Shown here: positions 56,626 through 61,069 of the stretch, in pieces
How positions within the stretch are numbered: the stretch's first letter is position 1
Layout: the number at the start of each line of letters is the position of its first letter
Origin: Mobula hypostoma
Lineage: Eukaryota
DNA length: 64,000 bases
Direction: 5' to 3'
Assembly (NCBI RefSeq): GCF_963921235.1
Contig: NC_086108.1
Span: 33,854,001-33,918,000 of the forward strand
The notes under the pieces: model-generated
What the model was told of the DNA's origin: nothing
Database searches by the model: none
What the model saw: only the letters and a program-made list of their open reading frames with translations
Program-made: the position numbers and the translations under genes

Positions 56626-58037
56626 TAATTCTATTTTGACCAGACAACTTAAAGAGATTTTGGTAAATTCTTCTTGTCTTTAACAGCCTGAAGAACTTTG
56701 TTTTCATTCTGCATCTGTTAGCGTTATGAAAGCTGTGATACTAATTTGTGGCTGGCCTCCTAATACAGACTGGGATTGAGGCTGCACCAACAGATTGGCA
56801 GGCACTGTGGAGACCAGTGATCCCCAGGTCACCGAACCTTGAGTTGGAGTTCCCTACTGTTGAGTGTCATAAAGGCCAGTGACCCTTCCCCAACCTCCAG
56901 TGACCGAATGGAGGTCAGTGTGAGGCTTGAGGCACTCCACGGTGGAAGGTCAATGATCTCAGAGGTCAGGGTCGAGGCCCAAAGGTCAAACCATAACTGG
57001 TGAGTCCCGGGATTGATGCATAAAGGTCAGTGAAGTCTGGAGAGCAAAATTGAAGGTTGAAGTCCAGAGCTCAGTGAGTTTGGACATAGAAAACTCGGAA
57101 GGTTGAAGACTGAAGTCCGTGAGTCTGAGCCCGAGAATGGAGGTTGGAAGTCAGATGTCTGAGTCTGAGAGTCTGGGGCTAAGGATTGGAGGCCCAGAGG
57201 CAGCCTGTCCTGTAGTTAGAGGCCTGTGTGTGAGGGTGGGAAAGGGGCTTGCTTTGTTTTGTTGTTGTTGCTGCTTGTGTTGTCGTGTTGGACATTGTTG
57301 GCATAGTATGTTGGAACCATAATGTTTGACAACTCTTGGTTGTCCCCCAGCACATCATTGTGATCCTCAGCGGCTGTGCAAGGGCACTTGGTGAGGGACG
57401 GTACAGGTGGAGGCATGATCAGGTCCTGAAGACCATCGCTGAAGCCGTCAGCGCAGGAGTTGAGTGGGCGAAGCAGTCCCGACCCTCCAAGCAGACCATT
57501 GCCTTTGTCAGAGCTGGGGAGCAGCCAATACCTGCCAAAAGAACATCTGCAGGCATTCTGACCTCTGCAAGGGACTGGCAGCTGTTGGTGGACCTCGAAG
57601 GGCAGCTGAAGTTCCCCAACCATATCGCAGCCATCACCCTGCGACCAGACATTGTCCTAGTGTCTGAGTCTACTAAGCAAGTGGTGCTGCTGGAGCTGAC
57701 AGTCCCATGGGAAGATAGCTTGGAAGAGGCCTTTGAAAGAAAGCTCTCCAAGTACGCAGGACTGGTCAGCAACTGTCAGCAGGATGGATGGAGAGTGAGG
57801 TGTCTCCCAGTGGAGGTTGGTTGTAGGGGATTTGTAGCCCATTCTTTAGTTAGAGCCTTCAGCATTTTGGGCATTGAGGGAGAGAGGAAGAGGAGAGCCA
57901 TCCGCAGTACCACCGATGTGGCAGAGAGGGCCTCAAGATGGCTGTGGCTCAAAGGAGGGGAGCCATAGAGTCACAAGTAGCTAGCCATCTGGACACAAGC
58001 TGGGGTCTGATCAGCCCCGGCTGGATCACCTGGAGGA

Positions 58038-58101
58038 GGTTGTATGATGTTGAAAGACCCGAAACACCCAATGATTCCAGGAACATCACTGAAGACGTGT
58101 C
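58038..58101 (+). ncRNA. Candidate non-canonically permuted hammerhead-like RNA (copy 1)
   Basis: GUA at 58042-44, stem I 58045-51/58082-88 (7/7), CUGAAGA 58089-95, GAAA 58061-64, stem III 5/6 pairs. Confidence 0.55.
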
Positions 58102-58299
58102 CAGAAGCATCAATAGATGTTTGTACACAGCTTACACCCTGAGTTCATCAGTGACAACCAGGAAAGACTGGGTGACAACCGCGAAAAGAGTGGTGACGAC
58201 TGGAGAGTCAGTGACAGCCCGGAGAGACGGCAACTGGGGCAGAACGGGCTGGCAACCCAATCTGTGTCCTCTGAGACGAGGACCCCCACAAAAGCTACA

Positions 58300-60438
58300 A
58301 TGAATCTAAGGGAAAGATACCCCCAGGGGTGCCCGAGAGGTGGGGAGGATGAGCACCTCAGTCAGATGGACACAATGACATCAGACCCAGGCAATGAACA
58401 AACGACAATGAGGAAGCAGTGTGCATGTGGCATAATCTGCAAGAACAATCGCGGCTTGAAGATCCACCAAGTGAGGATGAAGTGCTTGGTGGGAGCAGGA
58501 GCAGCACAACGCGCAGGTGTCCAACCTGGTGAGACGAAGGAAGGGCCAGGCCTGGAGTCACCCCATAGTGTCCGGAACCTCCAAGTGTTGCAAACTAATC
58601 CCTCGAACATGAAGTCTAACAGGAGGCGGATCAAATGGCCTGCAGCTAACATGACTTCACTGTGAAAGCAGCTTAATGAAGATGTTAACCAAATTCTGGA
58701 GGCAATGGCAAAGGGAGGGGTTGATAGGAAGCTGCAAACCATGACAACAATTATTGTTAGTATCGCAGCTGAACGGTTCGGAGAAGAGGTGAAGGAAGGC
58801 TCCAAAACATCTTACTCGAAGAACCAAAGAGCATTGAGGATCCACAACATCAGGCAGGAGATGAAAGCGCTGGAGTCCCAATACAAGGAGGCAGGAGAAG
58901 AGGAGCGCATTGGCTTGGCCCAGCTGATGTGCATACTACAAAAGAAGATCAGGGTCCTCTGCCGGGCAGAGTGGCATCGGAGGCGTCGTCGTGAAAGGGC
59001 CCGAAAACGTGCTGCCTTTATCGCCAACCCCTTCAAGTTCACCAAGGAGTTGCTGGGGGAGAAGCGCAGTGGGAAACTGACCTGTTCACATGAAAACATA
59101 GACCAACAGCTGAAGAAGATATACAATGATTCTGAAAGAGAGCAGGAGTTGGGAGAGTGCGACATCCTAATAGACCCACCTGAATCGGATGTGCAGTTCG
59201 ACGTGTCAGAGCTGCAACTAAAGGAAGTCAGAGAGATCGTCTGCAAAGCAAGGGCAAGCTCGGCTCCCGGACCAAGCAACACCTCGTACAAAGTGGACAA
59301 GAACTGCCCCAAACTCCTGCTGCGTCTGTGGAAGTTCCTGAGAATCTTCTGGAGAAGGAGGAAGATCCCAGAACAGTGAAGAGTAGCTGAAGGGGTGTGG
59401 ATCCCGAAGGAGGAAAATGCCACCCAGATAGATCAGTTCCACATCATCTCCCTGCTGTGTGTCGAGGTGAAGATCTTCTTCAGTGCAGTTTCCAACTGGT
59501 TGTGCACCTACCTGGCAAAGAACACCTATATTGATACATCAGTCCAGAAGGGTGGCATTTCAGGGATGCCGGGCTGTCTGGAGCACATTGGTGTGGTGAC
59601 ACAGCTCATCAGGGAGGCCAGAGAGAACAAGGGCAACCTGTCAGTGTTGCGGCTCGACCTGGCAAATGCATATGGCTCCATTCCGCACAAGCTGGTGCAG
59701 CTCACACTGACCAAATATCACGTCCCCAGCAGAATCAGAGACCTTATCGCTGATTATTACAGCAACTTCAGGATGAGCGTCTCTTCAGGAGCAATTACAT
59801 CAACCTGGCACAAGGTGGAGGTCAGCATCATCACAGGGTGCACTATCTCAGTGACACTGTTCTCCCTAGCCATGAACATGCTCACTAAGTCTGCTGAACC
59901 AGAGTGCAGAGGGCCCAGAATGAATTCCGCTCAATGGCAGCCACCTATCAGGGCATTCATGGATGACCTCACAGTCACCACAGAATCAGTCCCAGGCTGC
60001 CGGAGGATTCTGCAGGGGCTCAAAAAGCTGGTGGAGTGGGCCCAGATGCATTTCAAACCTGCTAAATCAAGATCGATGGTGCTGAGGAAAGGGAAGGTGG
60101 AGAACAAGTTCTGGTTCAGCATCGCAGGCACAGCCATCCCAACCATCACAGAAAAGCCAGTCAAGACCTTAGGCAAAGTTTTTGACAGATCTTTAAGGGA
60201 CACAACATCCATTCAGGCAACCTGCACCAAGTTGGATGGCTGGCTGAAATCTGTGGATAAGTCTGACCTACTTGGGAAGTTTAAAGCCTGGGTGTATCAG
60301 CATGGCATTCTTCCCAGAATCCTGTGGCCCCTCCTCGTCTATGCAGTTCCGATCTCGACAGTCGAAACCTTAGAGAGGAGGGTTAGTAACCACCTCAGGA
60401 GATGGCTGGGGCTGCCAAAGAGCCTGAGCAGCATCGCA
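58300..60438 (+). pseudogene. Hero-like ORF (ZF + RT) with two in-frame TGA stops and a 3' internal deletion
   Basis: ORFs 58117-58665, 58705-59379 and 59395-60468 share one frame. Stops at 58663 and 59377. The sequence jumps to the element's last codons at 60439. Confidence 0.85.
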
Positions 60439-60668
60439 CAGTGGAGGTTGGTTGTAGGGGATTCGTAGCCCATTCTTTAGTTAGAGCCTTCAGCATTTTG
60501 GGCATCGAGGGAGAGAGGAAGAGGAGAGCCATCCGCAGTACCACCGATACGGCAGAGAGGGCCTCAAGATGGCTGTGGCTCAAAAGAGGGGAGCCATAGA
60601 GTCACAAGTAGCTAGCCATCTGGACACAAGCTGGGGTCTGATCAGCCCCGGCTGGGTCACATGGAGGA

Positions 60669-60732
60669 GGTTGTATGATGTTGAAAGACCCGAAACACCC
60701 GATGATTCCAGGAACATCACTGAAGATGTGTC
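60669..60732 (+). ncRNA. Candidate non-canonically permuted hammerhead-like RNA (copy 2)
   Basis: Same core elements at offset +2631: GUA 60673-75, GAAA 60692-95, CUGAAGA 60720-26. Confidence 0.55.
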
Positions 60733-61069
60733 CAGAAGCATCAATAGATGTATGTACACGGTGTATTGGTTGTTAATGCAAATGACACATTTCACTGTGC
60801 ATTTTGATGTATGTGTGATAAATGATTCTGAATCATTATTTCAATCCTAATCTTCATCTTCCACAATATGGAAAATGTTGGATCCCTTTCCATGTATCAA
60901 AAGCAACCACTATTGAAGGCAGCTATCAATGTCAAATATATTACTGACTCCAGTGATCCACCAGTCTTTGGTCATCGAAGGAGAACAGATCTGAGTCTAG
61001 GATTGTCTGGTATTTGTTAAGCAGCAGTAATACCAGATTTCCTGTATGCTTTGGACATGAGATGACCCA

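Follow-up and report, generated by a model that had tools for sequence, protein, structure and literature searches.

A candidate hammerhead core in reversed strand order within a conserved pseudoknotted RNA domain of a Mobula hypostoma retrotransposon

The retrotransposon and its terminal repeats

The RNA domain described here lies in a stretch of 64,000 nucleotides (nt) of the Mobula hypostoma genome (RefSeq assembly GCF_963921235.1, contig NC_086108.1, positions 33,854,001 to 33,918,000 of the forward strand), which we call the window and number from its first letter. The domain occupies positions 57988–58105, in the terminal repeat of a retrotransposon of the kind that lacks long terminal repeats (non-LTR). 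That it is a real and selected pseudoknotted RNA of about 120 nt is well supported by the comparison of lineages. At its centre stand the three strands of a hammerhead core, in reversed order. An initial annotation of the window had drawn attention to them, and every string that it listed is present: GGTTG-TA-TGATGTT at 58038–58051, GACCC-GAAA-CACCC at 58056–58069 and AACATCA-CTGAAGA-CGTGTC at 58082–58101, with a 4-nt linker (GAAA, 58052–58055) separating the first two. We consider it about as likely as not that the domain cleaves itself in the manner of a hammerhead, be it in a single molecule or between two; both the catalysis and the cut site are predictions. The coordinates of all features are given in Table 1.

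Table 1. Features of the RNA domain and of the surrounding element (window positions)
Feature	Position	Strand	Description	Basis
C-terminal open reading frame of 5′-truncated upstream copy	57330..57968	+	TAG stop at 57966-68	list of open reading frames
3′ untranslated region, the "terminal repeat", copy 1	57969..58130	+	element 3′ end at about 58130
P1, 5′ strand	57988..57997	+	pairs with 58096-58105; closes the domain	minimum-energy fold, covariation
P2 hairpin	57998..58022	+	57998-58006 with 58014-58022; conserved loop
Stem II, 5′ strand	58023..58027	+	GGAUC in this copy, in most others GGGUC; partner 58056-58060
P3, 5′ strand	58029..58034	+	pairs with 58076-58081	covariation
k-turn-like internal loop, non-bulged side	58035..58037	+	conserved GA just before stem III; partner 58070-58075	pattern only
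Stem III, 3′ strand	58038..58043	+	ends in U16.1; pairs with 58064-58069
H17	58044	+	A in window lineage, C in older lineages; predicted cut 3′ of this base
Stem I, 3′ strand	58045..58051	+	pairs with 58082-58088; forms a pseudoknot with respect to P3 and stem III
GAAA linker between stems I and II	58052..58055	+	first base U in 10/17 lineage K copies
Stem II, 3′ strand (GACCC), then G12 A13 A14	58056..58063	+		sequence, alignment
Stem III, 5′ strand, with A15.1	58064..58069	+		alignment
k-turn-like loop, bulged side	58070..58075	+	three variable bases, conserved GA, one variable base
P3, 3′ strand	58076..58081	+		alignment
Stem I, 5′ strand	58082..58088	+		alignment, lineage K
CUGAAGA box, C3 to A9	58089..58095	+	CUGAUGA in all other lineages
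P1, 3′ strand	58096..58105	+	immediately 3′ of A9
Small hairpin P5	58107..58120	+	contains TAG 58114-16 and ATG 58117-19; the ATG opens the long open reading frame
Head and body of next copy	58131..60433	+	single frame; zinc-finger-like region and reverse transcriptase	list of open reading frames, RVT_1 match
Second tail copy	60434..60759	+	same RNA domain at 60619-60736; predicted cut after 60675

What remains of the coding region of the upstream copy contains, as read by eye, the PD...E.K motifs of a restriction-like endonuclease, and a Pfam search with this piece of open reading frame (ORF) returned no match. The head of the second copy joins the end of the first tail without a gap. In its reverse transcriptase Pfam recognized RVT_1 (E = 1.7e-18), the only Pfam domain returned, and the copy carries two in-frame stops and an internal deletion. 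Many unnamed teleost proteins share 60–88% identity with the reverse transcriptase, and a Tetraodon "polyprotein" shares 69%; one protein labelled R2 and proteins of amphioxus are also among its relatives. From these features the host appears to be a non-LTR retrotransposon of the restriction-like-endonuclease type, with an apparent endonuclease domain. The motif recurs at 60674–60732, 2631 nt downstream, and the two tail copies are 96% identical over 300 nt. Two of the three reading frames remain open over the junction of tail and head (ORFs 57878–58303 and 58117–58665), and the start of the head (58150–58225) holds four imperfect repeats of a GTGACAACC-like word at a spacing of about 20–25 nt.

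The lineage to which the window copies belong is young and is represented in the 3.48 Gb genome by at least 814 tail and at least 358 head candidates of 93–98% identity. Thirty sampled tail loci terminate at query positions 799–807, which correspond to 58128–58136 of the window. Tail sequence precedes the head, in perfect continuity, in 28 of 30 head loci, and the element propagates as partial tandems of tail, head, body and tail. At the 29 loci besides the window, the upstream tail piece begins at distances from the head that vary between 0 and more than 770 nt, and in 14 of them it contains the whole RNA domain. The ATG of the long ORF (58117) falls within the last 14 nt of the "tail", directly 3′ of an in-frame TAG. 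An ATG at this distance from the junction, in frame with the ORF, is found at 25 of 30 heads, and the TAG just before it at 23 of 30. Because the ATG sits in the tail, the coding unit requires an upstream tail piece, as in the pseudo-LTRs of Penelope-like elements; the "tail" both precedes heads and supplies their ATG, and therefore doubles as the leader of the next unit.

Many internal-deletion derivatives of the element also exist (13 loci). On the tail side they resume near one point (query 475–479, window about 57804–57808), and their head-side breakpoints vary among copies. The second copy in the window has the same tail-side deletion point, between 60433 and 60434, which is equivalent to 57803. 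The sequence at the shared point reads ...CCCAG before the break and TGG after it. The shared point could go back to a non-autonomous derivative that has propagated, or mark a hot spot of template switching or, in view of this sequence, a splice-like acceptor.

Conserved helices and the junction

Exact-word searches of the genome were used to collect relatives of the domain. A word spanning the CUGAUGA box and P1 gave 405 matches vs 1 for its control, a GAAA-strand word 2190 vs 2, and a GUC-strand word 318 vs 0. Alignment A1 (112 rows, all of them kept) combines the 2 window copies with 30 loci found by the first word, 20 found by the second and 60 found by the third, the second- and third-word rows being taken from the first 100 places listed for each word. 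The lineages compared were the window's young lineage, a large old lineage and its sub-lineage, the lineages K, B, C, D and E, and a metagenome variant. At least seven lineages, with differing flanks, keep the domain, and, in support of the initial annotation, the three core strands together with stems I and III are conserved in exact register in each lineage sampled. Old copies are about 15% decayed, uniformly along the domain, and this even decay makes raw column conservation uninformative about the core. In many of them, CpG decay of CACCCGAUGA to CACCUGAUGA (58066–58075, alignment A1) makes a second, spurious CUGAUGA that can mislead motif scans.

The domain was also sought in other sequence collections. 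A metagenome scan found it in 5 of 80 stretches (from 119 matched), all five contigs belonging to one assembly; they are presumably host DNA, and one of them (L203) has a further covarying version of helix P3. A scan of viral sequences found the domain in 0 of 11 stretches. Contigs from four runs, the kind of run being a guess, were aligned to the stretch; such contigs cannot show RNA ends. The initial annotation had expected a consensus G at 58040, where the window has T. G accounts for 764 of 892, 346 of 436, 676 of 965 and 672 of 2605 of the depth in the four runs, which makes it the majority letter in three and the commonest variant in the fourth, and most copies of the older lineages have it as well. 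At 58096 nearly all of the depth has T for C, and at 58044 C replaces A in 15–51% of it. Distant contigs have CUGAUGA in place of the window's CUGAAGA.

Three helices, P1, P2 and P3, covary plainly between lineages. P1 occurs in four paired versions, with both-side changes at 7 of its 10 pairs. The outer helix proposed in the initial annotation (57988–57996 with 58097–58105) falls within it, and this is indeed paired at nine of nine positions and covaries strongly. Both-side changes are found at 7 of 8 pairs in P2 and at 4 of 6 pairs in P3, for which there are four covarying versions. The same three helices are given by the single-sequence minimum-energy fold of 57985–58108 (z = −3.0), and the minus strand folds no better than shuffles (z = −0.9).

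Two partners for GACCC in stem II had been suggested, and the comparison favours the upstream GG(A/G)UC. With GGAUC (58023–58027), four of five positions pair in this copy, and with the GGGUC of most copies all five do; about 90% of alignment cells are paired, and RNAalifold picked this helix unaided. At the first pair of this helix, 68 rows have G-C and 8 have A-U, with A only in 4 and U only in 16 (Fisher p = 6.4e-4, ignoring shared descent). The other proposed partner, GUGUC, was rejected. It pairs at four of five positions in this copy if one base is skipped after the CUGANGA box; in the alignment 68.6% of cells are paired, a fixed C-U mismatch stands in 104 of 107 lettered rows, and there is no covariation. 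GUGUC belongs to P1.

The seven base pairs of stem I noted in the initial annotation, UGAUGUU with AACAUCA, are confirmed by eye. At the second of them most lineages have G-C, and lineage K has A-U. The test on lineage K started from the 5′ strand alone (67 matches, of which 20 were fetched and 17 had the partner strand), and 16 of these 17 copies carried the matching A, the remaining one having a G that forms a wobble. In alignment A1 there are four A-U rows vs no A-only rows (Fisher p = 1.3e-5, a value that again takes no account of shared descent). Position 58052 is variable in lineage K, and GAAA at 58052–58055 therefore behaves as a linker. A box C/D-like pairing, of CUGAUGA with CUGA across the cut site, was set aside, since the lineage K change backs a Watson-Crick stem I. 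Lineage K, with its 67 exact matches, differs in its 3′ tail and in part forms arrays, the copies being spaced at about 860 and 1400 nt. For several copies the start of the contig is no more than a few kb away, and a 5′-truncated copy (L306) adjoins (CCCTAA)n telomere-type repeats, which recalls telomere-attached retroelements carrying hammerheads.

Stem III pairs in register at five of six positions, as had been stated: the last A of GAAA plus CACCC stands opposite GGUUGU, with a mismatch between U58040 and C58067. Covariation in the three stems amounts to one compensatory event each in stems I and II and none in stem III. The internal loop that separates stem III from P3 has a k-turn-like pattern in all lineages (CACCC, three variable bases and GA, opposite GA followed by GGGUG); it is a sequence pattern only. 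For the 48 pairs as a whole, the paired share of cells is 85.4% vs 30–40% with slid partners, and the covariation score is 0.179 vs 0.141 in shuffles (none of 500 attains 0.179) and about 0.05 with slid partners.

Stems I (58045–58051/58082–58088), II (58023–58027/58056–58060) and III (58038–58043/58064–58069) meet at one junction. The strands joining them read C-U-G-A-N-G-A, then G-A-A (with the next A paired to U16.1), and a single H. The window copy, like every lineage sampled, has the 11 fixed core letters in full, the A15.1-U16.1 pair and an H17 other than G, and the older lineages carry GUC and CUGAUGA as in textbooks. Core differences between lineages are confined to N7 (U; A in the window lineage) and H17 (C; A in the window lineage, D and E), the two positions that are free in hammerheads. 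H17 is U in two array copies of lineage K and is G in none of the 51 rows in which it was not fixed by the search anchor. Simple arithmetic gives 1 in 55 for two random changes among 11 unpaired core positions landing on N7 and H17. None of the three stems is capped by a hairpin loop of its own; P3, by way of linkers of 0–2 nt and 1 nt, connects stem III back to stems I and II. The reversal of strand order reported in the initial annotation (cleavage strand, GAAA strand, CUGANGA strand) is real, and the order is not a circular permutation of the known ones. A complete in-register core that varies only where a hammerhead allows it is hard to credit to chance, even allowing for the very many windows scanned.

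Self-cleavage, docking or coincidence

The reading that we prefer is that of a self-cleaving RNA of the hammerhead type with a new wiring, which would probably also ligate itself. The three core strands would come in reverse cyclic order. In place of hairpin loops there would be cross-links, namely the GAAA linker between stems I and II and, returning from stem III to stems I and II, P3 with the k-turn-like loop; P1 and P2 would be insertions that separate A9 from the first base of stem II. Cleavage after 58044 would fall 72 nt upstream of the AUG at 58117. Since the tail AUG opens the long ORF, a cut in the upstream copy would free a translatable unit from a tail-head-body-tail transcript, and the downstream copy of the same fold would be the site recognized by the reverse transcriptase. 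The cut ends would be clamped by four helices, so that they might re-ligate to unit-length circular templates, which would explain the partial tandems. In its full form, this would be a fourth hammerhead wiring, in reverse strand order and with the RNA ends leaving through an extra helix at A9, that would serve for 5′ processing and docking in a fish retrotransposon. We offer this whole only tentatively and consider it somewhat doubtful.

Several observations weigh against a ribozyme, and we take them together with the alternatives on which they bear. The bare motif also arises by chance: a descriptor with stem I at 7/7 (G-U allowed), stem III at 4/5 or better and stem II at 4/5 or better with an offset of 0–1, in any order within a span of 150 nt, matched 15 of 200 dinucleotide shuffles of the window (17 matches, 7 of them in reversed order). 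By itself, the bare motif is not significant. In decayed copies the core columns are conserved no better than their neighbours, the decay being even across columns. Both observations would suit a functionless chance match carried along in a repeat, an explanation that we regard as very improbable. It is conservation and covariation across lineages that make up the excess over chance: lineages with differing flanks keep the domain, there are compensatory changes in P1, P2, P3 and stems I and II, and the domain appears in contigs of the four runs and of the one metagenome assembly. This covariation largely refutes a chance origin, on comparative grounds.

Rfam, at gathering score, returned no match in the whole window, and between 57500 and 58700, at E ≤ 10, it returned no ribozyme family, neither hammerhead nor hepatitis delta virus (HDV)-like. 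RNAalifold predicted no pairs at all on the 112-row alignment. When it was given 18 representatives, its prediction comprised P2, the GGGUC-GACCC helix and a local hairpin, ACAUC/GAUGU, that competes with stem I; P1, P3 and stem III were absent from the output of this program, which cannot draw pseudoknots.

The architecture itself raises a further difficulty. The strands follow one another as cleavage (58038–58051), GAAA (58056–58069) and CUGANGA (58082–58095), and A9 leads into P1 rather than into stem II, whose 5′ strand is reached only by way of P1 and P2. By rough geometry, the short linkers of P3 would accommodate the usual coaxial stack of stems II and III only if they were stretched or the junction were bent. 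A dimer would relieve this apparent strain. The core might act as a catalyst solely when two molecules or units come together, with a CUGANGA strand from one docking on the hairpin loop of the other, and the arrays of lineage K, with their two spacings, would suit such an arrangement. Minimal Penelope-element hammerheads are said to act as dimers (reportedly work of Lunse and colleagues from 2017). All of the helices found can, however, form within one molecule, and P1 closes the domain locally in the minimum-energy fold, so that we judge the strictly two-molecule explanation improbable.

The region from 58038 to 58069 (32 nt) is nearly invariant, paired and unpaired letters alike, unlike the stems of ordinary hammerheads. 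Such a stretch fits recognition by a protein. Within it, stem III is paired in 83% of cells and shows no clean compensatory event, and its U-C mismatch is present in the youngest and most numerous lineage; the support from stems I and II comes from their single events. A non-catalytic fold would accommodate these points: a compact pseudoknot, bent in the manner of a k-turn, to which the reverse transcriptase attaches for target-primed reverse transcription, the most successful lineage tolerating the mismatch. The likeness to a hammerhead would then be a coincidence or a structural remnant, e.g., tandem G-A pairs stacking on stem II. The domain lies within the last ~145 nt of the element, and R2 proteins bind a small pseudoknotted element of the 3′ untranslated region (UTR) to start reverse transcription (PMC12222951). 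We hold docking without catalysis to be possible, if short of probable. It would have to attribute to accident three register-exact helices with 11 hammerhead letters, for which a rough estimate gives a chance of about 1e-5 per structured RNA, as well as the restriction of differences between lineages to N7 and H17, and it leaves unexplained the hammerheads of Penelope-like elements, which share the partial-tandem habit. Catalysis and docking are also compatible: the upstream repeat could act as the ribozyme and its downstream counterpart as the docking site. A double duty of this kind would account for the frozen stems.

One prediction of self-cleavage concerns the ends of copies. A cut that set the 5′ end of the RNA should leave new copies starting at 58045. 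Not one of the 29 upstream tail pieces starts within 15 nt of this position, and by eye none of the sampled tails (0 of 20 and 0 of 30) starts at it. Cleavage after 58044, as proposed in the initial annotation, is so far unsupported, there being no genomic 5′ end at 58045, and a predicted cut that starts no copy is also a point for docking alone. Furthermore, were the downstream repeat cut efficiently and irreversibly, the coding RNA would lose its last 86 nt. A Penelope-like element with a hammerhead that cleaves in vitro gave no reads at the site, and its cleavage was dispensable for insertion (PMC11167929). Here, the pieces of a cut RNA would still be held by P1, stem II, P3 and stem III, which makes re-ligation conceivable; masking of the cut by bound reverse transcriptase is likewise conceivable.

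Implications and comparison with known systems

Hammerheads are held to exist as three circular permutations, and all descriptors assume this. If the reversed form were active, genome scans would miss a whole class. Within the literature searched, it would also be the first hammerhead tied to a restriction-like-endonuclease (R2-type) retrotransposon, a group known for HDV-like ribozymes: the search found no such hammerhead motif reported in this kind of element, and only an R2 engineering paper that uses a hammerhead as a tool. The same catalytic motif would then link two unrelated classes of partial-tandem retroelement, this one and the Penelope-like elements, and such a link would make the function of retroelement hammerheads more testable. 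Even without cutting, a well-supported double-pseudoknot RNA with a likely k-turn would be a good structural target for the study of template choice by reverse transcriptases. Among elements of similar habit, Zebulon (Bouneau and colleagues, 2003, under a title that gives it a tandem structure) is reportedly a fish restriction-like-endonuclease non-LTR element that inserts as partial tandems, and we know of no ribozyme-like motif in it.

The domain shares with hammerheads of types I–III the CUGANGA, GAAA and U-H letters, three in-register helices, the A15.1-U16.1 pair, a G-C first pair in stem II and freedom at N7 and H17. It differs in its non-permuted order, in the two helices between A9 and stem II, in the lack of loops of its own and in the lack of an Rfam match. 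To our knowledge, no activity of a reversed-order form is known. The available part of a 2017 review lists types I to III alone, as circular permutations (PMC6155905).

Two structures of R2 elements are comparable in position. The HDV-like ribozyme at the R2 5′ end (PMC3774820) belongs to the same element superfamily and frees element RNA from a longer transcript just upstream of the ORF, as the RNA proposed here would; it is of a different ribozyme class, and 57500–58700 gave no HDV-like Rfam match. The pseudoknotted 3′ UTR element of R2Tg (PMC12222951) is likewise a small conserved pseudoknot at the 3′ end of a restriction-like-endonuclease retrotransposon, and the domain here is a conserved structured RNA at the element's extreme 3′ end. 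The likeness noted here is one of position and description, and no hammerhead-like core is reported in the available part of that paper.

Penelope-like elements offer a parallel in habit: they, too, are described as partial tandems, and they have pseudo-LTRs in which a hammerhead adjoins the start codon (PMC11167929). Their minimal pseudo-LTR hammerheads (Cervera and de la Pena 2014, cited in PMC11167929 and PMC8557442) are of unclear function there too. As in the present element, a ribozyme-like motif stands in a partial-tandem terminal repeat near a start codon. The element here has no GIY-YIG nuclease but an apparent restriction-like one, and the Penelope motifs are canonical type I and tiny. 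In Naiad Penelope-like elements, "HHR_core" and "HHR_half_core" words that fit no canonical stem-loop descriptor have been annotated (Craig et al. 2021, PMC8557442). These, too, are hammerhead core words in a retroelement tail that lie outside canonical descriptors; they are plain word matches, given without helices, covariation or strand order, in another class of element. Among the published accounts that we found, this remark on Naiad is the nearest parallel to the reversed core described here.

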